Positions 219-38,608 of a stretch of 64,000 bases of DNA are shown piece after piece. The stretch comes from Candidatus Acidiferrales bacterium (GTDB lineage: Bacteria > Patescibacteriota > Microgenomatia > Levybacterales > UBA12049). The notes below the pieces were generated by a model. The model saw only the letters and a list, made by a program, of their open reading frames with translations. It ran no database searches and was not told where the DNA came from. Where the stretch lies: positions 355 to 64,354 of the forward strand of contig DATLSZ010000038.1 in NCBI GenBank assembly GCA_035533875.1, given 5' to 3'. Position 1 is the first letter of the stretch, and each line of letters opens with the position of its first letter. Position numbers and translations under genes: made by a program.

Positions 219-2984
219 ATGTTAGGGTTACTCAACAAAGTTTTCGATTCCAATAAGCGGGAAATAAACGCGCTCCAGCCGCTCGTTGATAAGATCAATG
301 CCGAAGAAGATACGGTCAAGAAATTAAAAGACAAAGACTTTCCCAAAAAGACACAGGAATTCCGGGACCGTATCAAAGACGGAGAAAAATTGATGGATGT
401 TTTGCCGGAAGCATTTGCTCTGGCTCGTGAAGCATCCCGCAGGGCTATTGGTCTGCGGCAGTTTGACCAACAAATGATGGGAGGAATAGTCCTAGCGCAA
501 GGAAAAATTGCCGAGCAAAAAACAGGTGAAGGAAAGACGCTGACCGCTGTTTCGGCATTGTATCTTCACAGTTTGCTGGGCAAAGGTGCTCATTTGGTAA
601 CGGTCAATGATTATTTGGCCAGGCGTGATGCTGGCTGGATGGGACCGGTTTTTAATTTATTGGGAGTTTCGGTTGCCGCTATGATCAATGATCAATCATT
701 TATCTACGATCCGGAGTTTGTCAATAAAGAGGCAAATGATTACCGCCTGACGCATCTCAAACCAATATCCCGCAAAGAAGCATACGATGCCGATGTGACA
801 TACGGGATCAATTCTGAGTTCGGATTTGACTATCTCCGTGATAATATGGCACAAGACATGACCAACGTCGTTCAGCGCGGCTACTATTATGCGATTGTCG
901 ATGAGGTTGACTCAGTTCTCATTGATGAAGCCCGGACGCCGCATATTATTTCAGCACCCGACGAATCACCTTCACAACGGTATTATGAATACGCCAAAGT
1001 CGTTGATAAGTTATCGCCTGATACGGATTATAAAATTGATGAGAAGTTCCGTACTGCTCATCTGACCGATCATGGAATCGGCAAAGTTGAGAAGCTCTAC
1101 GGTATCAAAGATATCTATGAGAAGGATTTTGACACTGTCTATCATTTGGAAGCCGCATTGAAAGCGCGTGCGCTCTTCCATCGTGAAAAAGATTATATTG
1201 TCAAAGATAATCAAGTGGTGTTGGTCGATGAGTTTACCGGAAGACTACTTGAGGGTCGTCGTCTGTCCGAAGGCATTCATCAGGCAATTGAAGCAAAAGA
1301 AGGCGTTCCGATCCAGCGTGAATCAAAAACACTCGCAACGGTTTCTCTACAGAATTATTTCCGTATGTATGAGAAATTGGCTGGCATGACCGGTACTGCT
1401 GTGACAGAAGCAGAGGAGTTCCGGAAGATTTATAATCTGGATGTTGTTGTGGTACCGACATACCGTCCGGTTCAGCGTATTGATCATGCGGATGCAGTAT
1501 ATAAATCCGGACGTGCGAAATACACAGCTGTCGCGAATTCTATCGAGGAAGCGCATAAAAAAGGTCAGCCGGTTCTTGTCGGTACAACTTCAATTGATAA
1601 GAATGAAATTGTTGCAGAACTGCTTCGCCGCCGCAAAATCAAGCATGAAGTCCTGAACGCAAAGAACCATTTGCGGGAAGCGGAAATTATCGCTAATGCC
1701 GGGAAGAAGGGTGCGGTGACTGTCGCAACCAACATGGCTGGCCGGGGAGTTGATATTGTTCTTGGCGGATCGCTTGACGTGGGCGCAACTGATGCAGAAA
1801 AGAAGCAGTGGCAGAAAGAGCATGACGAAGTGTTGAAATTAGGTGGATTATATGTTGTCGGTACCGAGCGTCATGAATCTCGGCGTATTGATAATCAGCT
1901 GCGGGGTCGGTCCGGCCGGCAGGGTGATCCGGGCGCGTCACGATTTTTTGTCGCACTGGACGATGAAATCATGCGGCTCTTCGGCGGAGACAGGATAGCA
2001 GGGATGATGACACGATTTAATATGCCTGAGGACGTGCCTCTCGAACATGCACTTGTGACCAAATCCATCGAGAACGCGCAGGTAAAAGTTGAGAGTTTCA
2101 ATTTCGATTCTCGCAAACATTTAGTTGAGTATGATGATGTGCTGAATAAGCAGCGGGAAATTATCTATGGACGTCGCCGTAAGATTCTAGAAAATACGCT
2201 TGATGAAAAGAGTACGCTTAAGGAACTTATTCGTGAGAAAATTCATGATGCCGTGTCAAGTTTGGTCGAGCTTGCGGTTGCCAATCAAGTAGCAACGACA
2301 GATTCGGTAAATGACGATATCAGTGACGCGTTCAACACGATTATTCCTTTTGATGAGGCATCCAAGTCGCAACTGGGCAAACAACTTGAGCAGTATCATG
2401 ATACTGATGCGAAAATAGCATTTCTCACCAAAATCGCGGATGACATTTATGATAATCGGGAGAAACAGCTTGGTATACGTCTTATGCGGGAGATTGAAAA
2501 ATATATTATGCTGTCAGTCATCGACAATCTCTGGACCAACCACCTCGATGCCATAGATAATCTGCGCCAGGGGATTGGTCTGCGTGGGTATGCGCAGCGT
2601 GATCCATTGGTCGAGTATAAGAATGAGGCGTTCAGGATGTTTGAGCAGCTCGTCTGGGCAATTGATGATGAGATAGTACATAGGATCTACAAAGTTCAGG
2701 TGCAGCAGCCGGCAGCAGGTTCAGGACCTACAGGTGAAACACATACCCATGAAGACGGTAGTGTTCATGAAGGCCCGGCACATCCGGAAGCAGCAGCTCC
2801 AGCTCCCAAACCTCGAAAAATAGTCACCAATACACCACAGAGTGAAATTTCGGACGATGGGAAGAAAAAAAGCCGTCCTCAAGAGGACTCCCTCGCCTCA
2901 AAGAGGCTCGGTCGTAACGATCCCTGCTGGTGCGGATCTGGGAAAAAGTGGAAGAAATGCCACTATCCGCAAATGCCTGCTTAA
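219..2984 (+). CDS. secA: Preprotein translocase ATPase SecA
   Basis: 921 aa. DEAD-like motor motifs (MMGGIVLAQGKIAEQKTGEGKT, IVDEVDSVLIDEARTP, TNMAGRGVDI) and a C-terminal SEC-C zinc motif CWCGSGKKWKKCH. Confidence 0.97.
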   Translation: MLGLLNKVFDSNKREINALQPLVDKINAEEDTVKKLKDKDFPKKTQEFRDRIKDGEKLMDVLPEAFALAREASRRAIGLRQFDQQMMGGIVLAQGKIAEQKTGEGKTLTAVSALYLHSLLGKGAHLVTVNDYLARRDAGWMGPVFNLLGVSVAAMINDQSFIYDPEFVNKEANDYRLTHLKPISRKEAYDADVTYGINSEFGFDYLRDNMAQDMTNVVQRGYYYAIVDEVDSVLIDEARTPHIISAPDESPSQRYYEYAKVVDKLSPDTDYKIDEKFRTAHLTDHGIGKVEKLYGIKDIYEKDFDTVYHLEAALKARALFHREKDYIVKDNQVVLVDEFTGRLLEGRRLSEGIHQAIEAKEGVPIQRESKTLATVSLQNYFRMYEKLAGMTGTAVTEAEEFRKIYNLDVVVVPTYRPVQRIDHADAVYKSGRAKYTAVANSIEEAHKKGQPVLVGTTSIDKNEIVAELLRRRKIKHEVLNAKNHLREAEIIANAGKKGAVTVATNMAGRGVDIVLGGSLDVGATDAEKKQWQKEHDEVLKLGGLYVVGTERHESRRIDNQLRGRSGRQGDPGASRFFVALDDEIMRLFGGDRIAGMMTRFNMPEDVPLEHALVTKSIENAQVKVESFNFDSRKHLVEYDDVLNKQREIIYGRRRKILENTLDEKSTLKELIREKIHDAVSSLVELAVANQVATTDSVNDDISDAFNTIIPFDEASKSQLGKQLEQYHDTDAKIAFLTKIADDIYDNREKQLGIRLMREIEKYIMLSVIDNLWTNHLDAIDNLRQGIGLRGYAQRDPLVEYKNEAFRMFEQLVWAIDDEIVHRIYKVQVQQPAAGSGPTGETHTHEDGSVHEGPAHPEAAAPAPKPRKIVTNTPQSEISDDGKKKSRPQEDSLASKRLGRNDPCWCGSGKKWKKCHYPQMPA

Positions 2985-2994
2985 GACTTCTTTT

Positions 2995-4656
2995 TTAGTT
3001 TGGTAGTTTATAATTCTTAACTGCAGAGATCATCGGGTCGCTAGGAGACATATTGAATCCGCATCTATATCCTTGTTCATTCGCGTTTAAATAGTTCCAA
3101 TAGACAACTCCTGATGCTCCACCGTTCGTACCGGTAGTGCTCAGCTCCATATTTGTCTTATTTATCAGCCAGGTTTTCCGGGCAGCAAGACTAAAGCCAG
3201 AGTGGTTTGCAGAAGTATCCGCAGTACCTGGATTTGGTGTGTTGGATGTGCAGCCTGAACCCCCGCTTACACCGACTTCATCACTGATGAATGGTTTGTT
3301 GAGATTCTTGGCCGCTTGCTTAACTTGTGCAAAATCTCCTGAGATTGTTTGTCCACCACCCCAGTCCCAAGAATAGTCGTGGAAATCAAGAATATCCAAT
3401 TTACTGAAAAGCGCTTGGTAGTCAGCTGCTCCGCCCATGTCGGAGACATCAGCTGGTGCAATGCTGATGAGCTGTTTTGCACCGGCAGCCTTGATCAGTG
3501 TATCCGCGCCGTTTATGTATGCTTGGGCTGTCGAAAGCGGTATACCTTGACCTACCACCGTAGCACCACCTTCACCATTGCCGCTATGAAATGGTTCGTT
3601 ACCGATTTCCCATATCGCAACGGTAGGATTGTCGGCGAGTGGTGTTACCAGCTGTTTAACCCAGTTCGCGTAATTGCTGCCTGATTGATAAGAGGATTGA
3701 TAGTAGGAGAGGGTTTTGCCACTGCCTTGCTGACCATTGCCTGAACCATTCAGGTCGCTGCAATTGCTATTGTCATCACTCAAGCCGATAATAAGATGCT
3801 GATGATATTTTGTCGCCTCATTGACGATACTCTCAATGTAGGAGACGCCTCCTGGATTGTTCTGAACCGCAAAGATACGGGCCATACCATTTGCAGGCAA
3901 GTTGGAAAAGTACGTGTCCATCTCTGCTGTTGTCCAATTGTTGCCGCTCCAACATTGTCCGATTATACCGTTGGGGTTAAAACCTATGAACCGAAACGGT
4001 TTGCCATTGAGCATCAATTGTGTCCCGGATGCCGTTATAAATCCTGAGTTGGAACTCGGCGGTTGCGAATTGGGGTTTGGTTGTCCAAAGATAGTAGGTG
4101 TAGGATTACCACCGTGCGCTGATGAGGGAGTACCGGATATATTTCCACCACCGCCCCCTGCACCTGCAGAGGGAGCAGCGGCGGAAGGTGCTGCAGAAGG
4201 TGAAGTGTTAGAACTGCAGGGAGTTAGTGAAGGAAGCTGAATACCTAATTTTTGGAAGAGAAATTGGAGTAATTGCCAGAGTAATTGAAAAAACTGCTGG
4301 ATACTTCCCCCATTCACCGAGTGATGTCTCTTGCCATGATAATGCATTGAGTATACAGTTCCGGTATTTTGCGAAGAGAGAGAAGGCTGAGAAGAAGAAC
4401 AAGGAAGCGTGGAAGTGGGAGATTGCGCGTCGGAAGGCGCAGCAGAAGGGTTGGGTTGGGAGCTACTGGGAGTGCCGGAAGAGATACTGGAGGGAGCAGA
4501 GCTGATAGGATTTGTTGTGTTACCGGTAACAGAAGGTTGAGTCTTACAAGAACCCAGACAATGAGGGGAAGGAATAGGAATAGTACTTTGAGCAAAAACA
4601 GGAACACAGGTAAGGATAGAGAAAACGAACAAGGAAACGAGCAGAAAATATTTCAT
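2995..4656 (-). CDS. Secreted glycoside hydrolase, GH5-like (mannanase/cellulase fold), with an N-terminal Cys/His/hydrophobic-helix module
   Basis: Signal peptide MKYFLLVSLFVFSILTCVPVFA, Ser/Pro-rich linkers and a clan GH-A acid/base motif IWEIGNEP. Confidence 0.75.
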   Translation of the reverse strand: MKYFLLVSLFVFSILTCVPVFAQSTIPIPSPHCLGSCKTQPSVTGNTTNPISSAPSSISSGTPSSSQPNPSAAPSDAQSPTSTLPCSSSQPSLSSQNTGTVYSMHYHGKRHHSVNGGSIQQFFQLLWQLLQFLFQKLGIQLPSLTPCSSNTSPSAAPSAAAPSAGAGGGGGNISGTPSSAHGGNPTPTIFGQPNPNSQPPSSNSGFITASGTQLMLNGKPFRFIGFNPNGIIGQCWSGNNWTTAEMDTYFSNLPANGMARIFAVQNNPGGVSYIESIVNEATKYHQHLIIGLSDDNSNCSDLNGSGNGQQGSGKTLSYYQSSYQSGSNYANWVKQLVTPLADNPTVAIWEIGNEPFHSGNGEGGATVVGQGIPLSTAQAYINGADTLIKAAGAKQLISIAPADVSDMGGAADYQALFSKLDILDFHDYSWDWGGGQTISGDFAQVKQAAKNLNKPFISDEVGVSGGSGCTSNTPNPGTADTSANHSGFSLAARKTWLINKTNMELSTTGTNGGASGVVYWNYLNANEQGYRCGFNMSPSDPMISAVKNYKLPN

Positions 4657-4770
4657 TAAAATAGATACAATCTCAGATTAAAATATTATGCTGGAGGTGT
4701 CAAGATAAGATAAATCATTTAACGGACATTTACTAGTACTTAGCTCTAATTTATTAGTCGTAATAGTTAT

Positions 4771-4845
4771 AAACATTACTTATTTGTGTGGTTCCCTATA
4801 TTGATGACAGCTCAAGAAATGCCACTATTCACAACTAGGGTAAAA
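4771..4845 (+). repeat. secA-3'-end-like repeat, copy 1 (core GATGACAGCTCAAGAAATGCCACTAT at 4803-4828)
   Basis: The 26-nt core is identical to 6227-6252. Reads LKKCHYSQLG* in the frame equivalent to the secA tail WKKCHYPQMPA*. Confidence 0.8.
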
Positions 4846-4849
4846 GAGG

Positions 4850-6097
4850 TTAGTTAGTAGGTACGCTTCCACACCACCATCCGCCTTTCGGTAACATGAT
4901 TGCTGGACACATTGTTCCGGGTTTGCATATAGGCTTTGGGGTGCAGGTTGGTTTTGGCTGCGGAGGGCACCAGCCGCCTACAGGTTCTGCAATCATACAT
5001 CGTGGCGTAGCATCCAGACATTTAGGTCTCGGCATACATGATGGCGCCGGCGAAGTAGAGGTAGATGGACACCACCCGCCACGTGGCTCCGCAGGGCACA
5101 TGATTCCTAATTTTGAACCCGGATAACACTGAGGAGGCTTTGGAATACACGATGGAATAGGTCCGCAGACTGGTTGATTTATGGAGCTAGATGCTTTTGC
5201 ATTTTGTTTTATTGCATTTGAGACCTGCTGGAAAATACCGGTAAGTTGATCGGCTGTTGGCGCATAAAAGAATGCACCCCCGGTGTCCGCTGCTATTTTT
5301 TTAAGAGAATTAAAATTAGCATTCTTTCCGGGTGTCCCAACCCCAACAGTAAAGAATGTCATTGCTGATGTTTTATAAGCATTTATAGCTGCTTGAAGTG
5401 CTGCTTGTTTTCCTTGAGATGTGTCTAATGCCTGTGGTGGTTGCATAAGTTCAGTCCAATTTGCTTCTCCATCAGTTATAACTATTGCTACTTTATTATT
5501 TTCGCTCGCGGCATCTTGTATCTCTTCTCCTTTAGCTACATCGATTCCGCATTGGGTACAAGTGCGGTATTCCAGATGTCCTGCAGCTTTTTTGACAACA
5601 GATTTCAACATGGAATAATTTTTTGTTAACTTTTGATCTAATGTTGCTGCTCGTCCGAAAGTTACCAAACCGGCCTTACTACTTTTATCAATTGAAATTA
5701 AGTCTATGAAATTATTCATCGCTGTTACTGCTGCAGCCATTTTCGTTTGGGAGCCGGATTTGCCATGCATACTATCTGAAATATCAAGAACAAAGAGAAT
5801 GTCGGCGGAGCCGGAAAGACATATGGGTTTTGGTTTGGGTATCGGAACACAGGTACCTCCGGTATCCGGAATGCTGCCATTGATATTGCATTCATATCCT
5901 ACCGGACAAAGAGACGTATTGGTAAGTCCACAAGCTTGAGTCATTGGCGCTGCTTCTTGTTTTATTTGCTGCTGTTGGTTTGAGGCAAGAAGCGTAATTG
6001 GCAAACTCACCGCAAGTAGGAAGAGGACAATTAATGTAGCATGCGTACCATTACTAACACTAGAGAAATAGTGCTTTATAAATAGTTTTATCCTCAT
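4850..6097 (-). CDS. Membrane-anchored/secreted von Willebrand factor A domain protein with a Cys/Pro-rich C-terminal repeat region
   Basis: MIDAS motif in ILFVLDISDSMHG. N-terminal hydrophobic anchor. C-terminal GGWCP repeats. Start moved to ATG at 6097 (MRIKLF...); the ORF track extends to 6154. Confidence 0.8.
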   Translation of the reverse strand: MRIKLFIKHYFSSVSNGTHATLIVLFLLAVSLPITLLASNQQQQIKQEAAPMTQACGLTNTSLCPVGYECNINGSIPDTGGTCVPIPKPKPICLSGSADILFVLDISDSMHGKSGSQTKMAAAVTAMNNFIDLISIDKSSKAGLVTFGRAATLDQKLTKNYSMLKSVVKKAAGHLEYRTCTQCGIDVAKGEEIQDAASENNKVAIVITDGEANWTELMQPPQALDTSQGKQAALQAAINAYKTSAMTFFTVGVGTPGKNANFNSLKKIAADTGGAFFYAPTADQLTGIFQQVSNAIKQNAKASSSINQPVCGPIPSCIPKPPQCYPGSKLGIMCPAEPRGGWCPSTSTSPAPSCMPRPKCLDATPRCMIAEPVGGWCPPQPKPTCTPKPICKPGTMCPAIMLPKGGWWCGSVPTN

Positions 6098-6190
6098 AAA
6101 AATGAATGAAAAAGACTCTAATTCTAACTTACGAGTATTCAAAGTTACTGTCAAGTATTAAAGTATAAATTTTGATGCTGTAATAATACA

Positions 6191-6265
6191 ACAAAAATGT
6201 TATAAGTTTATGATGTGCCTTATTTGGATGACAGCTCAAGAAATGCCACTATCCTCAGATAGGTT
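6191..6265 (+). repeat. secA-3'-end-like repeat, copy 2 (core at 6227-6252)
   Basis: 17 nt AAGAAATGCCACTATCC (6238-6254) is identical to secA 2952-2968. Reads LKKCHYPQIG* in the secA-equivalent frame. Confidence 0.8.
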
Positions 6266-6412
6266 GATATATTGATCTAATCAGCTATTTCAAGTCATTC
6301 TTTATACTGTATTAAGATTAGTCAAATTGACCCAGTACCCCAAACGTTCGTATCTTGACTGCTCTGTAAGAATTGATTACGCTAAATAATAGATATACAA
6401 ATAGTCATACCT

Positions 6413-8320
6413 GTGAAATATTTATTATTGCTACCACTTACTCTGATTTCATTATTTGCGAATTTCTCTTTTGCCTATGCCCAAACATCTGTTTCTCCGT
6501 CAGTTTTTTATTGTGTTGGTAATAATCCTCAACCTCCTTGTGTTACTATTGCCCCAACGCAATCAACAGTAAATAGTAGTCCTTCAGTCTCCCCAGCTTC
6601 GAGTATAGGCGGTACTATCAATCCTGTTTCCGGCATAGTAAGCCCTTCCGTTTCAATTTCAGTGACCCCCAGCACAGGAACAGGTCCCAATATCCCAGGA
6701 GGAGTATGTACTAATCTTAGTCAACTTTTAAATACGCTCGTTCCTATACAAACCAGCACCAATGCAAAAATCCATATCAAATGTGAACCAGCAAATAGTG
6801 GCGGCGGTAGTGGCAATGGTGGTGGTAATCCCAACAATGGATTAATAAGTAAATTTATAACATTACTCGTGCAACTTATTATGCAGTTGTTTCAATTATG
6901 TGGTATGCAACCTCCAACCGCTGGCACACCAACAATATCAGGAACACCATCTATCTCCCCAGCTTCATCAGTAAGCTCAACACCTTCCTCAGGTATTCCA
7001 TCAAGTGTTGTAGCTACGCCAACTGTTTTTTCAGTATCTCCATCAACTGGTACTAACACTCCCCCTACAGGTAATAGTACTCTGAAAATAGGCAATAACG
7101 CTCCACCTGCTGGCACCAATGCTGTGGTAGATTTCCGTAAAAATCTATCAGTTCCGGCACTGAATGTCTACTCGATCGGGGACACTATTTCAGAATTTGG
7201 TTATCCTAACAACAATATTGCAAATGCCACTTGGAGAAGTACGCTAGCCAAGCTCGGACCATTGGCGTGGCGTCTCGCTCTACGTATGAACGGCAATAGC
7301 GTAGCAGCTGGTGCAGGTGGTGGCAATGGTGACGGAACTGCCTACGTCAAAGATATTAGGGCTATGAACGGCGTACCCGTTGTCATTGCTGCTGGCAAGA
7401 CTGGAGATTACGATATTGACCCTAACATGAGTGTACAGTTGGTTCACTACTTTAACGATGGTGGTGGACGAAATGGCGGTCCAGTTAAAATATGGATAAT
7501 CGGTAATGAGCCTGACAATGGAAATTCGGGCGGCTACATTGGTGCTTTAAACGCTACGACGAAAGCCATGAAGCAAGCTGATCCAAGTATTCAGATTTCC
7601 GCTCCGGCTGCTTCACATTTTGATGATGGTCTTATGGGTGCAGCTAATAATACTGCCGGACAGTATATTAATTACATGAGTTATCATGCCTATACAGGTG
7701 GGGATGGACAAGGCGTGTACTCGACACCGGAATTTCTGACCGAGGCACAGCATGTCAAGAATAGCTACGGTAAAACACCTGCACTCGAAGAGTTCAACTG
7801 GAACTTTAGATGTGCAGGAGGAAATGGATATAGTGACTGGGAAGGTGGCGTGTACATTGCTAGTGTCATCGGCAACTCTCTCGCAGGGGGTGCTGGTCAC
7901 GCCTACATGTACGCTGATTCCGGCGGCTGCGGTACCCTATATAATGGTGGCGCACCTATGCCAGCATATTACGGCTTAGGTATCTGGACGGGTATGAATG
8001 GTCAGTTCGACCGCTTCGGCAGTCAGCTCGTTAACTCTAGTGTGGGTGGTGTTGATGTGACAAACGGTGGTAAGTCAGGACTATCTCAGCAAGTAGAACT
8101 GTTCGCGATGAACAATGGTAAGATCGTAGCGATAAACAAGAACGGTGGCGCTGAGAACATAACGATAGGTCTTGGCGGTCTGACAACTGGTTCATACACG
8201 GTGTGGCAAACCGACACCACCGGACCTATCAAAGAAGTCCGAGGTAGCACAAACTTCACAGGTTCAAAGATTACCATAACATTGCCTGGCCATACGGTAT
8301 CCAGTATCGACGTACAGTAA
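6413..8320 (+). CDS. Secreted glycoside hydrolase, clan GH-A (GH5/GH30/GH39-like), with an N-terminal Cys/His/hydrophobic-helix module
   Basis: GTG start. Signal peptide, Ser/Pro-rich linkers, IWIIGNEPDNG motif and a C-terminal beta-sandwich-like tail (ITITLPGHTVSSIDVQ). Confidence 0.7.
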   Translation: MKYLLLLPLTLISLFANFSFAYAQTSVSPSVFYCVGNNPQPPCVTIAPTQSTVNSSPSVSPASSIGGTINPVSGIVSPSVSISVTPSTGTGPNIPGGVCTNLSQLLNTLVPIQTSTNAKIHIKCEPANSGGGSGNGGGNPNNGLISKFITLLVQLIMQLFQLCGMQPPTAGTPTISGTPSISPASSVSSTPSSGIPSSVVATPTVFSVSPSTGTNTPPTGNSTLKIGNNAPPAGTNAVVDFRKNLSVPALNVYSIGDTISEFGYPNNNIANATWRSTLAKLGPLAWRLALRMNGNSVAAGAGGGNGDGTAYVKDIRAMNGVPVVIAAGKTGDYDIDPNMSVQLVHYFNDGGGRNGGPVKIWIIGNEPDNGNSGGYIGALNATTKAMKQADPSIQISAPAASHFDDGLMGAANNTAGQYINYMSYHAYTGGDGQGVYSTPEFLTEAQHVKNSYGKTPALEEFNWNFRCAGGNGYSDWEGGVYIASVIGNSLAGGAGHAYMYADSGGCGTLYNGGAPMPAYYGLGIWTGMNGQFDRFGSQLVNSSVGGVDVTNGGKSGLSQQVELFAMNNGKIVAINKNGGAENITIGLGGLTTGSYTVWQTDTTGPIKEVRGSTNFTGSKITITLPGHTVSSIDVQ

Positions 8321-8387
8321 GTACTCCTTAAGATATGTAGTACTTCCTGGTTGAACGCTAAGGATACTATCGGGCAGGAAGTGCAAA

Positions 8388-8420
8388 GACAGTTCAAAAA
8401 ATGCCACGATCCGAATTACC
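8388..8420 (+). repeat. secA-3'-end-like repeat, copy 3 (divergent)
   Basis: GACAGTTCAAAAAATGCCACGATCC matches the copy 1/2 core at 22 of 25 positions. Reads QFKKCHDPNY in the secA-equivalent frame. Confidence 0.6.
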
Positions 8421-8468
8421 ATAAACATGCTTCTTCTGTGGAATTACAAAAATTTTCCGTTGTTGAGT

Positions 8469-8497
8469 TTGACAACTGTTGTTAGATAGGTTAATCT
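8469..8497 (+). promoter_or_regulatory. Possible sigma70-type promoter
   Basis: TTGACA, 17-nt spacer, TAATCT. Lies upstream of the small ORF at 8634. Confidence 0.3.
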
Positions 8498-8633
8498 ACT
8501 TTTATATACGCTTCTGGAGAATTATCCTTTTTTAGCCTCTTCCAAAAACATTTACAATAAATTAGAACATTGTTTACATAATTCTTTTATTGAATGAAGA
8601 TAATTAATTATTATGAAAGGAGGTGATTAAAAA

Positions 8634-8696
8634 ATGGTTTATATTCTTTATCAAACGCTTATACATTACGGTCCACCCGGAACCTCATTGGCATAA
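8634..8696 (+). CDS. Candidate 20-aa small ORF (MVYILYQTLIHYGPPGTSLA)
   Basis: Strong Shine-Dalgarno AAAGGAGGTGA ending 7 nt upstream of the ATG. HYGPPGTS resembles HTGPPGQS in the next gene. Confidence 0.25.
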   Translation: MVYILYQTLIHYGPPGTSLA

Positions 8697-8806
8697 TAAA
8701 TATAAATCTCCTCTCTTTTTAATGTTCTTTTTATTGTAGTTTTTTGATTTATGCTGAAATTATCTTTCGTGAGAATTAAGACATGTCTTTTGTGGCCCTT
8801 TGAGCT

Positions 8807-9142
8807 ATGTGTTCAATCCGAGGGAGAAAGGGGGTGATTGCTATTTCAAAATTAATTGGATTATTTATCGTCTTATCGGTATTTCTTACGTCAACGTTGA
8901 TGACACAAACTGCGTTTGCGGCATCAGGGACGATCAAGCCCGGATGGGGGTTTGGTGATAAGAATCATATTCATACTGGCCCTCCCGGCCAGTCGGTGAG
9001 ACCAAGTGTTTCCGAATCGGTAAATGTCAGCGCTAATACCGGAGGAAATAAAACCGGGAATAATTCCGTGGTTCTTACTGGGAATGCCAATGTGATGGTG
9101 TCAATAGAAAATTTCTTCTCCCATTTATTTGGTAAAATTTGA
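8807..9142 (+). CDS. Small secreted hypothetical protein
   Basis: Signal peptide ending TAFA/AS. An alternative GTG start at 8834 is preceded by GGGAG. Terminator lies downstream. Confidence 0.6.
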   Translation: MCSIRGRKGVIAISKLIGLFIVLSVFLTSTLMTQTAFAASGTIKPGWGFGDKNHIHTGPPGQSVRPSVSESVNVSANTGGNKTGNNSVVLTGNANVMVSIENFFSHLFGKI

Positions 9143-9167
9143 GGTAAGGATTTAGGGATTTGATGAT

Positions 9168-9201
9168 AGCATAGGCTTGCTCGACGGGGCATGCCTATGC
9201 T
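9168..9201 (+). terminator. Hairpin terminator
   Basis: AGCATAGGC / GCCTATGCT 9-bp stem 26 nt after the stop codon. The T-run is weak (CTTTGATT). Confidence 0.5.
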
Positions 9202-9510
9202 CTTTGATTATTGCTTGATAAGCAAGAGCAGATGGGCTGACGGCAGGAGAGTTAAGCTGCTTTGATATAGTATCTCATTTTTTCCTGCATTACCTCAATA
9301 TATTTTTTTATCGAAACTAATTCCTTTCTCTGAATCGTACTCCGTATATTTCATAAATTCGTCGCAATTATCTTCCCAAACAGCAATATCTTCCAGATAT
9401 TTGAGCCAGAAAGCTCACTGTTTGGTTGGTATCTCTTTTTAAATTGTAAAAAGTTGCTTTTTGTTATATAATCTTTTTTTCGTGGCAATATTGAGTGAGC
9501 TCTATTCTGT

Positions 9511-11781
9511 ATGCTACGATCTTTGCGTGTCAGTACACAACGGGCACTTACTACAAAAAGTAACACCGGCACATTTCGATATGCCGTTTTTAAACCTGCG
9601 GGCAATGATACCGGATTAATTACCGGAATCATACCTGATGCCGAGCGGAGAAAAGAAATAGCCTCATTGTTGCAGGAAATGAACCCTTCAATTGAACAAG
9701 TGGGATTTGTTAACCCTGACTCCAATAATGCTGAGCTGATAATGGCTGGCGGTGAATTTTGCGGAAATGCAACAAGAAGCGCAGCTTATCAAATTTTACG
9801 TGGTAAACCAGGTAAAATTTTTATAAAAGTTTCAGGTGTAAAAAAGAAGCTTCTGGCGGGGGTTACTAAGCGTGGAGAAGCCTACTGTCAGATTCCCATT
9901 TACGAAGATCCCTACTTAATCACCCCTGATCCCAAACACCCCGGAAATGCGCTTGTTACAATGGAAGGAATAACTCATTATATAGACTTTGACTTCAGTA
10001 AAATTAGAGGATTAACAACTGATGAAATAAAAGCAAAAGCACGGAAAGAAATGGCTGATATGGGTATTGATAAGCAAGTATGTTGCGGAATTATATATGT
10101 TGATCAGCGGGAAGATTGGTGCGCTATTCATCCCATTGTGTATATCCGGGATGTTGATACACTCTTTTACGAAACTGCTTGTGGAAGTGGAACGACAGCT
10201 TTGGGTCAGCTGCTTGCGCTTCAGCAAGGCAAATCAATCAATGAAATGCCGATACTCCAGCCATCAGGCTTGAATATTAGGGTAACAGTTTCCTTTGATG
10301 GTAAAAAATTCGGTTATGCACAGATTCAATCTCCTATAGAAATATTGCAGAATGGTGTTCTTGAATTACCGCAAAACCATACAAAAGAAACATCACAGTC
10401 TATTAATACCATGCTTCAAAATATCATTCAAAAAAGGCCGAAGTTGAGGAAGCTTATAGCCGATAAATCAATTCTTGATTATCTCCGGCCGGCTCTTACA
10501 TGGAAACAACAGGAAAATATTTTTCCTCATGCCAAAACATTAGAAATGATTATTACAGCACATATTGAAAAACTTTACGGAGAAGATGCCGCTGCTCTTG
10601 CGAGCAAACAATTGAAAGATAGTTGGGTTGTTGAAACAGGTGCGCATTTACATATTCCTCGCCGTTACAATAATCTTGCGCAGACAGAAGGTGCACAAAT
10701 TAATTCACTTCTTTTCCAGGGGCAGGTATTATGGGCACTGGCTAATCAGCGTTTGGGCAATCATTTGGCAATCGGTATGAATTCGGGAAGAGTTCCCCTT
10801 GATAATACCAATAGTGGAGCATATCTGGATTTGCCATCTCTTAAAACGCCTATGACGTTGGCGAGCAAGAAAAAGCATCCAGACTCACCTCAAACCTTCA
10901 TTTCCGCACGAACAAAAGAAGATATTGAACAAAAACTTGAACTGCTTGCTATGTATAAAAAACAGCGGATGATTCAAGAACAGGAATACGAGCTTGGTCT
11001 GGAAATATTAACTAATTTTTTAGTAGTTCAATCAAGTTTCAGTGATCAGGTCGCTACAACACATGCATTGATGTTAAATAAACTTTTGCCCAATAGACAA
11101 ATTACCCTGGATTCAGAGCCGGTCGGAGCAGAATTCATTATAAAGCTTCTGAAAGATCCAACATCATTAACCTACAGTATATTTACCGATCCATACCGCA
11201 AAGCGCTCTTTTATCAGTATCTTAAGAGTATTCAAACGGGGTGGGCGGAGCATGGTTCACCATTCTATCAAATTATTCAAAAAGGCGAAGGGTACCGGCT
11301 GGTCGATTATTCGGGAGATCTCAGCCCAGAAACGATCATAAAAGGACTTGAAGAAAGAACACTTTGGCCTACAGGAGTTATGAAATTTTTTGCAGAGATG
11401 GTAGAGGGAGGATTACTTTCTGTCGGAGGCTGGACTCAAACAGGATATTGTACAGATATTAAAATGCAATCAGTCAAACTTCTGCATAAATTCGGCTATA
11501 AAGAGCGGGCGGAAGCACTTCATAAGATGCCAACCCATATCGCCGCAGTTGGTCCGTGCTGGGGAATTGATAAGATAAACGGTAAATTCCAACTGCTTGA
11601 TGCAATAACAACGCTTCTTGATACCTCCATCGTAAATCTCTCCTATATAACCAATCTGACAGCAACACAAACATTACTCATTGCAGCACCAACCTTATAC
11701 GAATTTTTGCTCAGGGAACCGCCGGTGATAAATTATAAAGACCTAACCGAAATCTCCCGATACGCTTTTGCACGAAGATAG
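9511..11781 (+). CDS. DapF-fold epimerase/racemase-like N-terminal domain fused to an uncharacterised ~460-aa C-terminal domain
   Basis: PAGNDTGLI, MAGGEFCGNATRSAAY and ETACGSGTTALG match the two-Cys DapF/PhzF-type layout. The C-terminal 460 aa has no motif I recognise. Confidence 0.6.
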   Translation: MLRSLRVSTQRALTTKSNTGTFRYAVFKPAGNDTGLITGIIPDAERRKEIASLLQEMNPSIEQVGFVNPDSNNAELIMAGGEFCGNATRSAAYQILRGKPGKIFIKVSGVKKKLLAGVTKRGEAYCQIPIYEDPYLITPDPKHPGNALVTMEGITHYIDFDFSKIRGLTTDEIKAKARKEMADMGIDKQVCCGIIYVDQREDWCAIHPIVYIRDVDTLFYETACGSGTTALGQLLALQQGKSINEMPILQPSGLNIRVTVSFDGKKFGYAQIQSPIEILQNGVLELPQNHTKETSQSINTMLQNIIQKRPKLRKLIADKSILDYLRPALTWKQQENIFPHAKTLEMIITAHIEKLYGEDAAALASKQLKDSWVVETGAHLHIPRRYNNLAQTEGAQINSLLFQGQVLWALANQRLGNHLAIGMNSGRVPLDNTNSGAYLDLPSLKTPMTLASKKKHPDSPQTFISARTKEDIEQKLELLAMYKKQRMIQEQEYELGLEILTNFLVVQSSFSDQVATTHALMLNKLLPNRQITLDSEPVGAEFIIKLLKDPTSLTYSIFTDPYRKALFYQYLKSIQTGWAEHGSPFYQIIQKGEGYRLVDYSGDLSPETIIKGLEERTLWPTGVMKFFAEMVEGGLLSVGGWTQTGYCTDIKMQSVKLLHKFGYKERAEALHKMPTHIAAVGPCWGIDKINGKFQLLDAITTLLDTSIVNLSYITNLTATQTLLIAAPTLYEFLLREPPVINYKDLTEISRYAFARR

Positions 11782-11788
11782 CGTTACC

Positions 11789-13186
11789 TCAGCTTCCTGA
11801 CGGAATTATGTTTGAAGGTATTATCGAAGGAGACGGGGATACAACGGATGACGGTAACGGATTAAGACTTGGACAGGGAGTTGTGCCAGGATTCAGGTTA
11901 ATAGGTGGTATGCTTCCATTATTCCCAAGCAGCAAATTAATTAAACTGATAATAAATTGCAATAATAATAGCATCAGATTACTGACACCACCATTTTTAT
12001 GTTCATGTTCTTTTAACTCGTGAACAGAATTCGTATGCACTGCATTCGTTTGATTTGTACTCGCGCAAGGAGTTTGTGAAGGTGATGACGAAGGCGATCC
12101 CGAAACTCCAGGTGATGTCTGATTATTCCCCGATCCGCCACCTCCAGCTGCCTGCGAAGGGCCTGGGCTTGCTCCACAAGTACCGCCAAGACAATAAAGC
12201 GTTGGTGTAACGGCAGAGGGAGCCGGAGGTTTTGAGCCTCCGGAATTTGCAATATTGACAGTAAAGAGATCACTGAGGTCTGTTGCTTTTGCTGCACCGC
12301 CCAAAAGGGGAGTCACACCAAAAATTTCTTCAATCGTTTTCAGGGTTGAGCTATGATCGTAGTGGATTGAGTTTGAATAATTTTTCTTTGCAAGCGGTGA
12401 TAATACGATCATCCCGATCGGGCCGTCTCCGCCTTCACCTTCATCCCAGATGATAAAGAGCACGCCATTTGTTTTATACGCCTGTGAGTTTAATATCTTT
12501 GGTACTTGTTGTGACAGCCAGGTGTCTGCTTGTTGAATTGTTCCGTTATGCATATCGTCATTAACGTTTGGTGTAATGAATGTATAACGTGGTACTGTAT
12601 TATTTTGTAATGCAGCAGCAAGTTCTGAGTAAGGACGTTCATGGGAGATGCAGTTAGAAGAATTCGCATTACCATTGTTCGTGACATCGTTAAAATAAGA
12701 AAATGGAACATGATTTACGTCGGCACCTGAGAAATTGAGAATACAACTTTTTCCATTTGTGTCTTCCGCATATTCTTTCCAAGTGATACCCGCAGCATCC
12801 AAGAGGTCGGTTAAGTGTTTGGCGCTGCTTCGGCAATTTGCACTATCAGGGCTGCAATCGCTTTGTCCTGCTACCGCAGCACCTGCTTCAAGCCAGACGT
12901 AATTCGGCGCACTGGGATGATTTCCTGGGGGGTTATAATATTGTTCGGCATGCGCGCCCATCGGTAATAAAGTTTTGTTTATGTATGGAGCGGAAGAACT
13001 GCCTTTTATAGCAGCCCAATTGTGATTTTCTTCCGCAATGATGAATACATGCTGGATGGGTGATGCCGCGTAGACCTTTTGCAGGTTTATCGTGGGTTTA
13101 TTATTGGCAAACAATAAAAATAGTGAGATGAGTAGCATACAGGCAATAATAATTACGCCGGGTTTTACAATATAAAGTTTTTTCAT
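11789..13186 (-). CDS. Secreted phosphoesterase family protein (PLC / acid phosphatase AcpA-like) with a C-terminal Cys/His/hydrophobic-helix module
   Basis: N-terminal anchor. HVFIIAEENHNW, NDDMHNG and FIIWDEGEGGDGP motifs. C-terminal module YCLGGTC...HELKEHEHKNGG...LMLLLLQFIISLINLLLG. Confidence 0.7.
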   Translation of the reverse strand: MKKLYIVKPGVIIIACMLLISLFLLFANNKPTINLQKVYAASPIQHVFIIAEENHNWAAIKGSSSAPYINKTLLPMGAHAEQYYNPPGNHPSAPNYVWLEAGAAVAGQSDCSPDSANCRSSAKHLTDLLDAAGITWKEYAEDTNGKSCILNFSGADVNHVPFSYFNDVTNNGNANSSNCISHERPYSELAAALQNNTVPRYTFITPNVNDDMHNGTIQQADTWLSQQVPKILNSQAYKTNGVLFIIWDEGEGGDGPIGMIVLSPLAKKNYSNSIHYDHSSTLKTIEEIFGVTPLLGGAAKATDLSDLFTVNIANSGGSKPPAPSAVTPTLYCLGGTCGASPGPSQAAGGGGSGNNQTSPGVSGSPSSSPSQTPCASTNQTNAVHTNSVHELKEHEHKNGGVSNLMLLLLQFIISLINLLLGNNGSIPPINLNPGTTPCPSLNPLPSSVVSPSPSIIPSNIIPSGS

Positions 13187-13265
13187 AGGTCGTATATGCT
13201 TCCTTATATAGGGTAGATTAGATGAACAAACAAGTCAATGTTTTTTAAAATGATATAATCATCAG

Positions 13266-20077: not shown

Positions 20078-22009
20078 TTATTTTTTTGTGAGCTGGTTGA
20101 GAAGGCCGTTGAGGTTTACTGTCGCAACTCCGATGACTTTGTCTGCACCGCCATAATAAACAAAGAGTGTCTCCCCGATTACCAGTGCACCGCAAGGGAA
20201 GACAACATTTGGCACTTCACCTTCGACTTCATATTGCTCAACAGGTTCAAAAATTGGATCATCTGTACGGACAAGTATTTTCGTCGGATCATTTTTATCC
20301 AAAAGCATCGCTCCGACTTTATATTTAAAGCCTGGTTCCGATACTCCATGATACAATAGTAGAAAGCCTTTTTCTGTTTCTATGGGAGGTGCTGCAATAC
20401 CGATCTTCACATTATCCCATTTATCAGGCCTTGGCTGCGCGATCGCTTTACCTCCTAAGAATTTATTACCACCGTAGTCCATTTTATCCGATACATCAAC
20501 CCAGATATCGTGTCCCAGCCGGTGAAACACAATGTATTTTCCTTCGTTACTTTTTATGATACAGGCATCTTTATCATCTGCATTAGGAAGTGAAATGAGC
20601 GTGGGTTCTTCCCAGTTCCACTGCCTTCGTAAAAAGTTTTCAACACCGATCCATGTTATTGCAACACGCGGAGGATTCTCTCCATCATATGCCGTATAGG
20701 TCATATAAAAACGGTCATCAAATTCCGTGATGCGAGGGTCTTCACATCCGGCATTGCCTATGGATTTTATTCTTCTTTCAAAATTTGCTCGTGGTGTGTA
20801 AATTGGATAATCGAGGTTCTCATCAATATGAAATCCGTCTTTACTTACAGCAAGTCCAAACACAGACATCCCGTCACGAGACTGAGCTCGGTAGATAATG
20901 TGTACCTTACCGTCTCCGTAGATAGCAGCGGGGTTGAAGACCGCCTGCGCCTGCCATTCCCATTCAATTATTGGTTTGAGAATTGGATTGCCAGCAAAGC
21001 GGGTAAGTTTGTCATTGTCTGTCGGAGCAGAGATGATCGGTGTTGATGCTTTTGGTTTGATATCATCAAGAAGTTCATTTATCTTGCAAGTTGCCAGTGC
21101 AACTCGTGTATCAGCAGCACCGTAATACACATAGAGCTCATCATCTTTTACAAGACCGCCGGAGGGGAAAATTACATTTGGCACATCTCCACGCAGCTCA
21201 TATTCTGCCTGCGGAGTAATGAGCGAATAATCGGTTCTTCCCAAAATATGACGCGGGTGATCAAGATCCAGCAGTACCGCTTCTATGCCAAATTTTTTTT
21301 CATTTGAAAGATAGTCGGTGATATAGGAATACAGGACAAGCCAACCGTCTTTTGTCTTGATTGGTGCCGATCCAAGTTCTACCTGATCACGGATATCGCG
21401 GAGAAGATTGATAACATGCGTGCCGGAGTTTTCATACAATTCATCCCAATAGTATGGAGACCATATCTCATCTTCACGATCAAAATACGCGACAGCTATT
21501 TTTGCTGGTGGCAGATCGGTATTCATTGTGATAAGAGCACCCATCTTCCCTTTGACCAGATCAGGAAAAAGAGCCATGGCTTTTGCATTGAAGGTACTGA
21601 CCGGATGCTTGAAAAACGTTTTAAAATCCTCTGTGATAGCAACGGCTGTTTTGATCCCATACGCGCTAAACGGAAAGACAGAAAGTGCAGTATAAAAAAT
21701 ATAAAATTTCCCATTGAAAAAAGTAATACGCGGATCCTCAACTCCATATTCTTCCCAGTCTTCTGTTGGACCAAAAAGCAATTTGTGATCTCCGAAGTGG
21801 ATGCCATCTGTGCTTGACGCATACCCAACCGATGAAACCCGCATAGTGATGCCATTCTGTTTTTTTTCAGAAGATAAAGCTCGGTAGACCATGTGGTATA
21901 TTCCGTCGTTGTATGCAACGCAGCCATTGAATGCACCATCATGCTCCCATTCAAGATCAGGGTTCGGATTTAGTATTGGATTTTCGGGGTAACGTTGTAA
22001 GGTTATCAT
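20078..22009 (-). CDS. Tandem double GH130-like glycoside phosphorylase/glycosidase
   Basis: Two copies of the GH130 pattern (NP..NP...WE....FN......DG.YHM.YRA, EDPRIT, VYYGGAD) in one 643-aa protein. Confidence 0.8.
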   Translation of the reverse strand: MITLQRYPENPILNPNPDLEWEHDGAFNGCVAYNDGIYHMVYRALSSEKKQNGITMRVSSVGYASSTDGIHFGDHKLLFGPTEDWEEYGVEDPRITFFNGKFYIFYTALSVFPFSAYGIKTAVAITEDFKTFFKHPVSTFNAKAMALFPDLVKGKMGALITMNTDLPPAKIAVAYFDREDEIWSPYYWDELYENSGTHVINLLRDIRDQVELGSAPIKTKDGWLVLYSYITDYLSNEKKFGIEAVLLDLDHPRHILGRTDYSLITPQAEYELRGDVPNVIFPSGGLVKDDELYVYYGAADTRVALATCKINELLDDIKPKASTPIISAPTDNDKLTRFAGNPILKPIIEWEWQAQAVFNPAAIYGDGKVHIIYRAQSRDGMSVFGLAVSKDGFHIDENLDYPIYTPRANFERRIKSIGNAGCEDPRITEFDDRFYMTYTAYDGENPPRVAITWIGVENFLRRQWNWEEPTLISLPNADDKDACIIKSNEGKYIVFHRLGHDIWVDVSDKMDYGGNKFLGGKAIAQPRPDKWDNVKIGIAAPPIETEKGFLLLYHGVSEPGFKYKVGAMLLDKNDPTKILVRTDDPIFEPVEQYEVEGEVPNVVFPCGALVIGETLFVYYGGADKVIGVATVNLNGLLNQLTKK

Positions 22010-22094
22010 TTCAGAACACTCAGATCGCCGTGTAAATTAGTTATATCAGATTATCAGTTTTTCTGAAAGACAGAATACTTGAGATTTCTGAAAA

Positions 22095-31128: not shown

Positions 31129-32685
31129 TTAGTGCCAAAAGGCACGGCGTCCGGTAAAGATCATTGGTATTCCTGCTTTGTCTGCTGCATCAATTGACTG
31201 CTGGTCATTGACCGAGCCGCCCTGCTGGACAACTGCTGCGATTCCATGTTTCACTGCAAGCTCTACACTATCTCCAAACGGGAAAAAGCTGTCTCCGACC
31301 AGAATACCGTCTTTAGTATACTTGCCTGCCTGCTCTATGGCAATCTTTGTCGAGCGGACACGAGAGGTCTGACCCGATCCGATACCACGAGTCATCGGGA
31401 TAGTTTTATCCATCACAAGTACGGTGTTGGATTTGATTTTGGTGATAAATTTCCAACCAATTTGCATTTGTTCCAGTTGTTGTTTGGTGGGCTTTTTCTT
31501 TGTCACGACCTGCCATTGTTTGAATGATTCATCGATGTCGATGTCGGCTGTTTGGAGCACAAATCCCCCGTCAATTGATTTCAGATTCCATTCGTCTGAC
31601 AAAGAGGGGATATCACCAAAGGAATAAATGCCCATTGATTTACGAACTTTTTGCAGGAATGCGAGAGCGTTTGGTTTGATAGACGGCACTGCGATGATAT
31701 CCATATTACCTCTCTTTGCATCTTTAAATCCGCCGATGACTTTTGCTGCCGCAAGATCCATGGGCTTGTTCAGAACAATTATACCGCCGAATGCCGATTC
31801 AGGATCTCCTTCAATCGCGTTGCTCAATGCTTCGTCCAATGTATTTCCCAGAGCCGCACCGCAAGGACTGTTGTGTTTGATCACTGCGGCGGCTGGTTGA
31901 TCAAATAATCGTACGACATCAAGACCGGCGTTGATATCAGTGACATTAACCAGTGACAGATCCCGACCCCAATGTTTGGTGAGATGATTAAACGGTGTTG
32001 CCACATTTGGTCTGGTATACACGGCACCTTTTTGATGGGGATTTTCACCATAACGTAAATCAATGAGTTTCCTTCCGGGAATGGTAATTTCTTGAGGGAA
32101 TATTGTTTCATCCATTTGTGATCTTAAGTACCATGCGATCTGGCTGTCATAAAAAGTGAGGTGGTCAAAAGCTTTTGCCTGGAGGTAACGGAGGAGTTTC
32201 ATGTCGATTTTTTTCGGCAGCGCATCAGTGACTGTTTGATAATCCGAAGGATCGGTAACAACTATGAGTCCATTTTTGGCTGCTGCGCGGATCATGGTCG
32301 GGCCGCCGACGTCGATGTTCTCTATTGCTGTTTTATAACTTACTTTTTTATCTGCGACGGTTTTTTCAAACGGATAAAGGTTGCAAACGACGATGTCGAT
32401 TTGCGGGATTTTTAGTTGTTTTGCTTCTGCTACATGTTTGGCGTTTGATCTATCATAGAGAAGCGCGGATTCGATTTGGAAACTGATGGTTTTCATCCGT
32501 CCATCAAAACTTTCGGGATTGCCGGTGATTTTCTGGATAGGAGTGATTTTGATGTTTGATTTTTCTAATTCTTTTGCGGTGCCGCCGGTGGAGATGATTT
32601 CGTAGCCTGCTTTGATAATTGCCTCGGCAAAGGGGACAATGTCTGTCTTGTCAGAAACACTAATGAGCGCGTATTTTTTACTCAT
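31129..32685 (-). CDS. purH: Bifunctional AICAR transformylase / IMP cyclohydrolase
   Basis: ALISVSDKT MGS-like N-terminal domain and C-terminal AICARFT domain ending RRAFWH. Confidence 0.92.
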   Translation of the reverse strand: MSKKYALISVSDKTDIVPFAEAIIKAGYEIISTGGTAKELEKSNIKITPIQKITGNPESFDGRMKTISFQIESALLYDRSNAKHVAEAKQLKIPQIDIVVCNLYPFEKTVADKKVSYKTAIENIDVGGPTMIRAAAKNGLIVVTDPSDYQTVTDALPKKIDMKLLRYLQAKAFDHLTFYDSQIAWYLRSQMDETIFPQEITIPGRKLIDLRYGENPHQKGAVYTRPNVATPFNHLTKHWGRDLSLVNVTDINAGLDVVRLFDQPAAAVIKHNSPCGAALGNTLDEALSNAIEGDPESAFGGIIVLNKPMDLAAAKVIGGFKDAKRGNMDIIAVPSIKPNALAFLQKVRKSMGIYSFGDIPSLSDEWNLKSIDGGFVLQTADIDIDESFKQWQVVTKKKPTKQQLEQMQIGWKFITKIKSNTVLVMDKTIPMTRGIGSGQTSRVRSTKIAIEQAGKYTKDGILVGDSFFPFGDSVELAVKHGIAAVVQQGGSVNDQQSIDAADKAGIPMIFTGRRAFWH

Positions 32686-32789
32686 TGATAATACTATTAT
32701 AACGTATCTTTCATAATAAATCCAGTTTAATTAAATGACTATGGGTTGAATCGAAAAGTGAGAATGCCAAACTTCCAGTGAACGTGCAG

Positions 32790-38603: not shown

Positions 38604-38608
38604 TAGAA

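Follow-up and report, generated by a model that had tools for sequence, protein, structure and literature searches.

How three exported enzymes, encoded within a 64,000-nucleotide stretch of contig DATLSZ010000038.1 (positions 355 to 64,354; hereafter, the window), came to share a segment lying outside their catalytic domains, and what this segment might do for them, is the question raised by this locus. An earlier analysis made from the letters of the DNA (hereafter, the sequence-only reading) had described the same ordered module of cysteines (Cys), a His-rich patch and a helix in all three enzymes; the module was found in each of them where it had been placed, the ranges then given running from the first to the last Cys of each copy. 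Judged by their sequences, the three segments are copies of a lineage-restricted, portable and non-catalytic module of exported proteins. The genes, each an open reading frame (ORF), and the module copies are listed here with lengths in amino acids (aa) and with bit scores against the non-window profile described below; GH stands for glycoside hydrolase.

2995-4656, minus strand: gene A, secreted GH5 enzyme, 553 aa (NCBI HVA97156.1)
4201-4578, minus strand: module copy A, subtype A, aa 27-152, 98.1 bits
6413-8320, plus strand: gene B, secreted GH-A-like enzyme, 635 aa, GTG start (NCBI HVA97158.1 'hypothetical protein'; identical to P0001)
6494-6955, plus strand: module copy B, subtype B, aa 28-181, 78.2 bits
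11789-13186, minus strand: gene C, exported phosphoesterase, 465 aa (NCBI HVA97161.1)
11852-12211, minus strand: module copy C, subtype C, aa 326-445, 64.3 bits

In gene A, which matches the Pfam family Cellulase (PF00150, E 1e-10, aa 218-471), the signal peptide is followed by the module, a Ser/Pro/Gly linker and the catalytic domain. The layout of gene B, for which Pfam gives weak GH39/GH44 matches only, is signal peptide, module, linker and catalytic domain; in gene C (Phosphoesterase PF04185, E 3e-31), an N-terminal signal or anchor precedes the catalytic domain, which is followed by the module and a short Ser/Pro tail. The module is therefore located, as had been stated, right after the signal peptide in two enzymes and at the C-terminus of the third. 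In the NCBI records, the window proteins bear the name of their catalytic domain or the label 'hypothetical protein', and the module regions, currently treated as 'hypothetical' or as linkers, can now be corrected. In the ENA gene calls, the GH5 gene begins at an internal Met (450 aa, P0004; window 4347-4656, minus strand; L088 12777-14129; proteins and loci are designated here by P and L numbers), a call in which the signal peptide, the cap and the linker are lost; the 553-aa start is supported by P0002 and P0009, in which the first 147 residues are conserved.

The likeness of the three copies might have been a coincidence of low-complexity sequences. Smith-Waterman z scores against global shuffles are 8.3 for A-B, 7.0 for A-C and 3.0 for B-C. 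In a stricter comparison, a profile was built on 37 modules from other organisms, excluding the window sequences; copies A, B and C score 98.1, 78.2 and 64.3 bits on it, against a maximum of about 10 bits for 1000 global shuffles and of 27-44 bits for 1000 shuffles within 10-residue blocks, which preserve the local composition of the hydrophobic helix and of the Ser/Pro linkers. The likeness thus survives composition-matched shuffling with a maximum of 44 bits, BLASTP with composition-adjusted matrices agrees with the profile result, and the coincidence is ruled out by the block shuffles together with BLASTP matches limited to the module. A regular expression for cap plus helix, run over the six frames of the 64 kb, matches these three ORFs only, and the hidden Markov models (HMMs) of the family disclosed no fourth copy in the window, in the 10 kb upstream or in about 4 kb downstream. 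Since no meaningful nucleotide similarity exists among the three copies, a recent DNA duplication is ruled out, and the copies are best regarded as old paralogous modules.

When the three-copy alignment was run with HMMER against all of 1.84 billion representative proteins, it returned 41 module clusters (50% identity) at E<=1e-3, ten of which at E<=1e-10; a module found in 41 clusters among so many representatives is rare. According to Pfam, the full-length proteins carry it together with Peptidase_S8 (five members), Ricin_B_lectin (four), Phosphoesterase and GH16 (three each), GH12 and GH5 (two each), and, with a single example each, Spherulin4, Peptidase_A4, SKN1/KRE6, DUF5060, CAP, a PQQ propeller, Metallophos, a Pel9A-like beta-helix, GH39 and PASTA. 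A profile scan for partners and positions had been suggested by the sequence-only reading; among 40 proteins, 25 have the module after the signal peptide, 6 have it between domains and 9 at the C-terminus. An N-terminal signal or anchor segment is present in nearly all the complete members, in agreement with the proposal that the carriers are secreted. In P0003 (S8-module-GH12), P0006 and P0022, the module is embedded between two domains of secreted, extracellular type.

The three copies belong to three distinct subtypes, each conserved in other genomes, and each has a counterpart attached to a different catalytic domain. Copy A (on GH5) is 59% identical to the module of P0002 (on GH16) over residues 1-147, with no likeness beyond (E 9e-27); copy B, N-terminal in its enzyme, is 48% identical to the internal module of P0003, located between the S8 protease and GH12, over the module only (E 2e-27); and copy C (on the phosphoesterase) is 48% identical, again over the module only, to that of P0029 (on a CAP domain; E 3e-14). 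Since modules 48-59% identical sit on different catalytic domains and the likeness ends at the module boundary, the module has been shuffled, as had been proposed. Some members depart from the enzyme-plus-module scheme. P0031 (L087 505-1248), a complete ORF of 247 aa, has no part other than the module and a transmembrane segment at its N-terminus; it is possible that it represents an anchor subunit, and a search for its homologues returned P0031 itself only. P0007, P0013, P0040 and P0041 have two helix units, each with its own flanking Cys, and a single cap. Lastly, P0005, P0007 and P0014 are large Ser/Thr-rich repeat proteins with the module at the distal N-terminus; their C-termini share the motif W..(I/V)T.(P/G)I(V/W)(H/Q)(V/F)(L/F)TSL, which may be a separate C-terminal anchoring or sorting signal. 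No copy was found by the module HMM in 80 SecA neighbourhoods, and the core of copy A, used as a single query against genome contigs, gave 599 pattern matches, none of which was confirmed.

The sequence-only reading did not recognize the module as a described domain, and the library searches agree. In the window proteins and in 41 full-length members, Pfam models cover the partner catalytic or lectin domains only and leave the module uncovered; for the module in the window proteins and in 40 isolated copies, NCBIfam gives nothing beyond scattered matches at E>0.01. A profile of 46 helix units retrieved four weak matches from the PDB (E 0.15-5.8), two of which were inspected and owe their alignment to His-tags in the constructs. 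The literature searched yielded no description of such a module for the Candidate Phyla Radiation (CPR) or for Microgenomates. The module is of a known general kind, the accessory modules without catalytic activity by which secreted enzymes are targeted or retained, while its combination of a Cys-loop cap with a Cys-bracketed, Gly-capped amphipathic helix of 20 residues in disordered linkers has no described relative in the libraries and literature searched.

The elements of the module follow one another in a fixed order: cap, linker, a 'PC' cysteine, basic/His patch, helix between two Gly, and Pro-rich exit with a cysteine. In the window they are located as follows.

4546-4563, minus strand: copy A cap, HCLGSC
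4393-4407, minus strand: copy A third cysteine (C3), in LPCSS
4321-4347, minus strand: copy A basic/His patch, MHYHGKRHH
4243-4308, minus strand: copy A helix with flanking Gly, GSIQQFFQLLWQLLQFLFQKLG
4210-4224, minus strand: copy A exit, TPCSS
6509-6541, plus strand: copy B cap, YCVGNNPQPPC
6707-6784, plus strand: copy B extra Cys-bracketed segment, CTNLSQLLNTLVPIQTSTNAKIHIKC
6800-6838, plus strand: copy B Gly/Asn run
6839-6904, plus strand: copy B helix with flanking Gly, ending QLCG, GLISKFITLLVQLIMQLFQLCG
6905-6931, plus strand: copy B Pro-rich exit, without Cys
12176-12196, minus strand: copy C cap, YCLGGTC
12059-12073, minus strand: copy C C3, in TPCAS
11996-12037, minus strand: copy C His/Lys/Glu patch
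11924-11992, minus strand: copy C helix with flanking Gly, GGVSNLMLLLLQFIISLINLLLG
11867-11881, minus strand: copy C exit, TPCPS

The cap (consensus xPTx(F/Y)C(L/V)G-x(1-7)-C) contains the first two cysteines, C1 and C2, and is joined by a Ser/Pro/Thr linker of 40-90 residues to C3, the 'PC' cysteine, after which comes a Ser/Thr stretch with a few conserved hydrophobic positions. It had been asked whether four Cys are invariant: in 40 aligned modules this is true of C1 and C3, and C2 is present in at least 90%, but the downstream Cys lies at a variable distance (within 25 residues of the helix in 29/49 units and within 60 in 47/49) and the B types have five. Loop lengths between the cysteines vary widely. 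The helix is 20 residues long in 32/49 units and 19-21 in 43/49. A Gly stands directly before it in 44 of 48 units and directly after it in 47 of 49; these single flanking residues, and not the Gly run previously described, are the family feature, a true run being present in the B subtype only. Beyond the helix, the exit has a Pro at +4 in 39/47 units, and its description as Pro-rich with a fourth Cys holds for copies A and C; in copy B, the additional Cys is located in the last helical turn (QLCG). The B subtype comprises window copy B, P0003, P0011 and P0014, and differs in other respects as well: it has a Gly/Asn run in place of the basic patch and an added Cys-bracketed segment, CTN(L/F)SQ...K.H.KC, and its helix terminates in (L/M)C, so that all four members have five cysteines. 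The fact that two-helix proteins have one cap, with flanking cysteines of their own for each unit, suggests that disulfides would pair C1 with C2 and C3 with C4.

The patch preceding the helix had been called His-rich, and this description applies to copies A and C but not to copy B, with its Gly/Asn run. Over the 18 residues before the helix the median net charge is +3, an excess of at least three Lys/Arg/His is found in 76% of the units, and at least two His are present in 53%, without any fixed His position; outside the B subtype, from which it is absent, the patch is thus basic/His and mostly made of Lys/Arg. These data bear on the proposal that the module binds metals through His and Cys. 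In its favor, His-rich patches adjoin cysteines in copies A and C, the 53% of units with two or more His would be consistent with it, and a gene for a CntK-like histidine racemase lies in the same island. Nevertheless, a core function of this kind is very unlikely, given that the patch is missing in the B subtype and dominated by Lys/Arg elsewhere, that neither the His position nor the length of the Cys loops is fixed, and that the best-conserved element is the hydrophobic helix rather than the His/Cys spacing.

As for the helix, 13 of its 20 positions are occupied by large hydrophobic residues, 27% of which are Phe, Trp or Tyr, and a single-file polar stripe recurs every 3-4 residues, consisting of Gln in the lineage of the window and of alternating Glu/Lys/Arg elsewhere (e.g., IGDFMQQLLELIKQLLELIG). 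Because the hydrophobic face is conserved and the polar one tracks the composition of the lineage, the former is taken to be the functional face. On the Eisenberg scale, the hydrophobic moment (100 degrees) has a median of 0.55 and the mean hydrophobicity of the window copies is 0.3-0.7; this combination of a high moment with an intermediate mean hydrophobicity is the one expected of an in-plane amphipathic tether. Across the family, the hydrophobicity periodicity has a broad peak at 3.8-3.9 residues (92-95 degrees), a stretch of 20 residues being too short to separate the heptad period of 3.5, as in coiled coils, from one of 3.6. Two AlphaFold2 single-chain runs, performed on copies A and C with family alignments of 40 and 29 sequences, gave a predicted local distance difference test (pLDDT) score of about 90 in the helix that nowhere else exceeds about 60, with a predicted template modelling (pTM) score of 0.23-0.25. 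In both runs only the helix folds, which rules out a globular domain; and, since the prediction is confident for the helix alone, the module appears to be one helix within disordered, cysteine-punctuated linkers. A helix that stands alone with some 240 degrees of large hydrophobic surface cannot remain exposed to solvent, and this face must be buried in lipid or in protein.

One way of burying it would be a conventional membrane span, with the helix acting as a stop-transfer segment or as part of a sorting signal of the LPXTG, PEP-CTERM or PGF-CTERM type; insertion of the helix had also been envisaged by the sequence-only reading. A helix of 20 residues with adjacent charged residues has the right size; moreover, copy C lies near the C-terminus and, with its relatives, is hydrophobic enough (Kyte-Doolittle 2.14, 1.64 and 1.75). 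Yet the 19-residue Kyte-Doolittle mean has a median of 1.0 and reaches 1.6 in only 6 of 49 units (12%), leaving 88% below this value (among the window copies, A has 0.67, B 1.69 and C 2.14), and the helix, for which predictions of transmembrane character and amphipathicity had been suggested, is strongly amphipathic and mostly stays below the transmembrane threshold. Charged polar stripes, with 4-6 charged residues within some helices, are also against a span, which in addition would put a glycosidase or lectin in the cytoplasm in the 25 of 40 proteins whose module precedes the catalytic domain; the inter-domain modules of P0003, P0006 and P0022 and the location of the basic patch on the extracellular side point the same way. 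Sorting signals resemble the module in having a hydrophobic helix and a charged cluster on exported enzymes, which they serve to retain at the surface, but they are obligately C-terminal, their helix is preceded by a signature motif and followed by a basic tail, and a dedicated enzyme cleaves them; in contrast, the module is N-terminal or internal in 31/40 proteins, has its basic patch before the helix and no signature motif. None of the three window proteins contains the motif LP.TG, whose single occurrence, in P0005, is out of context, and no NCBIfam sorting-signal model matches the 40 isolated modules. Anchoring by a span or a sorting signal is therefore very improbable.

Three further candidates were discarded. 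The class III signal of type IV pilins is N-terminal, combines a basic leader, G|F and a hydrophobic helix, and has Glu at +5 after the Gly; in the module this position is occupied by Phe or Leu in 47/49 units, and the motif is found 70-600 residues from the start of proteins already equipped with a Sec signal. A lipobox does not agree with the context of the Cys and with the internal occurrence of the motif, and the class IIa bacteriocins (YGNGVxC..C loop plus amphipathic helix) are similar in layout only, a linker of 40-90 residues intervening in the module.

The reading favored here, tentatively and at somewhat short of an even chance, is that the module is an in-plane tether to the outer leaflet of the cytoplasmic membrane of the producer. 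The helix would be a surface-seeking element whose broad hydrophobic face needs burial, and as the protein leaves the Sec channel it would most likely come to lie flat within this outer leaflet, assisted by the contact of the cationic patch with anionic head groups; the long linkers would allow the catalytic domain to extend out through the wall, and the C1-C2 and C3-C4 disulfides would probably hold the cap together and form a closed loop around each helix. In this way, an exo-enzyme could be kept tethered to a cell without an outer membrane. CPR cells are indeed monoderm. An abundance of aromatic residues on the hydrophobic face is common in helices that bind lipid at the interface and rare in the cores of coiled coils. 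The tether is preferred because a cationic patch precedes the helix, because the hydrophobic face is rich in aromatic residues and the helix falls in the surface-seeking range of moment and hydrophobicity, and because the mechanism is indifferent to position, has linkers that could carry the catalytic domain through the wall, and finds a precedent in Escherichia coli PBP5 (PMC2909392); modules placed between extracellular domains, as in P0003, P0006 and P0022, also fit an in-plane tether but not a span. PBP5 is a Sec-exported enzyme kept at the outer face of the inner membrane by its 18-residue C-terminal amphipathic helix (PMC2909392); if the module is a tether, it would share with PBP5/PBP6 (DacA/DacC) an amphipathic helix, about 18-20 residues long, which lies within the bilayer or at an oblique angle in it (PMC2909392). 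The PBP5 helix, however, is confined to the extreme C-terminus of one enzyme family, lacks cysteines, cap and long linkers, and has no sequence relationship with the module, which is shuffled across families and positions.

Several observations weigh against the tether. The mechanism is drawn from the physics of the sequence; the cationic patch is missing from the B subtype; an anchor-like segment is already present at the N-terminus of several carriers; and a second membrane anchor would be redundant in P0031, although this protein is a singleton. Besides, the tether does not account for the role of the cap, and neither the tight 20-residue length nor the Cys bracket would be needed for in-plane binding, both being a better fit to a defined protein-protein assembly, while the odd number of Cys (five) in B-type modules hints at an intermolecular disulfide.

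These points lead to the main rival explanation, possible although on the whole unlikely, in which the module serves docking or oligomerization: the helices of several module proteins would pack into a bundle locked by interchain disulfides of the flanking cysteines, so that the exo-enzymes might form complexes, or attach to another carrier of the module that is itself membrane-anchored or adhesin-like, in a scaffold-light analogue of cohesin-dockerin or of matrilin/COMP coiled-coil assembly. The 13/20 hydrophobic positions are those expected in a multi-helix bundle; the nearly fixed length, the Gly caps, the Cys on both sides of the helix in 47/49 units and the constant five Cys of the B types, one of which is in the last helical turn, would be in agreement with such a structure, and three subtypes in one genome, each conserved elsewhere, are the pattern expected for pairing specificity. 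Docking might also make sense of the one-cap, two-helix proteins (P0007, P0013, P0040 and P0041), of P0031 as a complete, transmembrane-anchored, module-only protein and of the large repeat proteins P0005, P0007 and P0014, which bear the module at their distal N-terminus. On the other hand, 20 residues (three heptads) are short for a stable coiled coil, a core with 27% aromatic residues is atypical for such structures, cationic patches of +3 to +7 beside each helix would repel one another in a parallel bundle, no partner gene is conserved at four other module loci, and P0031 stands alone. A more specific version, doubtful as it is, would be a minimal docking system in which subtype-specific (A, B and C) helices of the exo-enzymes zip into disulfide-locked bundles held on the cell by module-bearing carriers (P0031, P0005, P0007 and P0014). 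The tether and docking mechanisms are not mutually exclusive, and tethering or bundling of the enzymes at the surface of the cell is the probable role of the module.

The comparison with known docking systems shows both likeness and difference. Dockerins (PF00404), the partners of cohesins, are, like the module, short, non-catalytic, portable and flexible in position, exist in several subtypes, and are joined by Pro/Thr/Ser linkers to many different secreted hydrolases of one genome; unlike it, they have a duplicated Ca-binding, EF-hand-like fold of about 70 residues, whereas the module has one folded helix and no Asp-rich Ca loops. No dockerin model is among the families matched by the 41 members and AlphaFold2 gives no second structured segment, hence the module is not a dockerin; nor was a cohesin-like partner found in the 64-kb window and about 14 kb of flanks. 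In matrilins and in COMP/thrombospondins, the cysteines flanking the coiled-coil domains form interchain disulfides, and these coiled coils, too, are short, Cys-bracketed amphipathic helices in modular extracellular proteins; but they are eukaryotic, have longer heptad repeats and aliphatic cores that are not Phe/Trp-rich, and show no sequence similarity to the module.

The physico-chemical evidence for an in-plane tether would equally be in keeping with a helix that binds a foreign surface, attaching the enzymes to the membrane of a host or prey, or to hydrophobic organic matter such as fungal and plant surfaces. Several partners act on fungal or plant wall polymers or on proteins (GH16, GH12, GH5, SKN1/KRE6, Spherulin4, Peptidase_A4, ricin lectins and the pectate-lyase-like beta-helix), and cultivated CPR bacteria are epibionts. 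Nonetheless, the sequences give no distinction between foreign and self, phosphoesterases and CAP domains fall outside the wall-degrading theme, and so hydrophobic a helix would meet the membrane of its producer first on leaving the Sec channel; targeting of this kind is thus improbable.

The genomes of CPR bacteria (Patescibacteria) are tiny, their cells lack an outer membrane and most of their surface proteins are unannotated; little is understood of the ways in which degradative enzymes are retained on such cells or directed at a host. By carrying the module, a set of exported hydrolases, proteases, phosphatases and lectins can be recognized as members of one surface system in a soil Microgenomatia-like lineage, and the HMM of the module, of about 130 positions, is a sequence handle for finding such proteins. 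If it is a tether, it would be a very compact retention device, usable at any position in a protein and of interest for the engineering of surface display; if it is a docking element, it would represent a new way of assembling multi-enzyme complexes. Should the subtype-specific form of docking be true, a small-genome CPR bacterium would have a cellulosome-like surface machine in which one helix replaces the cohesin-dockerin pairs.

Concerning the host, the SecA encoded in the window (219-2984, plus strand) is 74% identical to that of a Candidatus Levyibacteriota metagenome-assembled genome (MAG), and the next-best matches are in Microgenomates, Gottesmanbacteria and other Patescibacteria MAGs. 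The lineage is here taken to be CPR/Microgenomatia-like, with the caveat that the NCBI label of the window's MAG, 'Candidatus Acidoferrales bacterium', conflicts with this SecA-based placement; several close GTDB MAGs are evidently mislabelled 'uncultured Gammaproteobacteria'. From SecA to the HAD hydrolase gene there are 10 kb in the window (2985-13265), holding all three module genes, against 3 kb with three unrelated genes in the Levyibacteriota MAG (L004, the closest GTDB relative), so that the module genes lie in a variable island. Since no neighbors are shared between the window and four other module loci (L084-L087), a conserved operon partner is ruled out.

Other genes of the window are listed below.

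4850-6154, minus strand: membrane-anchored VWA-domain protein, between module genes A and B
9511-11781, plus strand: protein with a CntK-like histidine racemase N-domain
20078-23918, 31129-40826 and 44619-46586, minus strand: purine, PabB-HPPK and GH130 genes
57614-61768, plus strand: large ORF, 1384 aa
61811-63643, plus strand: large ORF, 610 aa

The VWA protein has a Cys/Pro-rich C-terminal tail with three 'GGW(W)C' repeats, not covered by any family model. In the CntK-like protein, encoded inside the secreted-enzyme island, the racemase domain (NCBIfam E ~1e-20, aa 24-282) is fused to about 470 residues without a family match. The genome is CPR-like, yet it has genes for de novo purine synthesis (PurL, a PurF-PurN fusion and PurH), together with a PabB-HPPK fusion; two adjacent GH130 paralogues have long N-terminal extensions. 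Finally, the adjacent 1384-aa and 610-aa ORFs have no Pfam match at E<=1e-5, and in related contigs (L091) this pair is followed by a CAP-domain gene.

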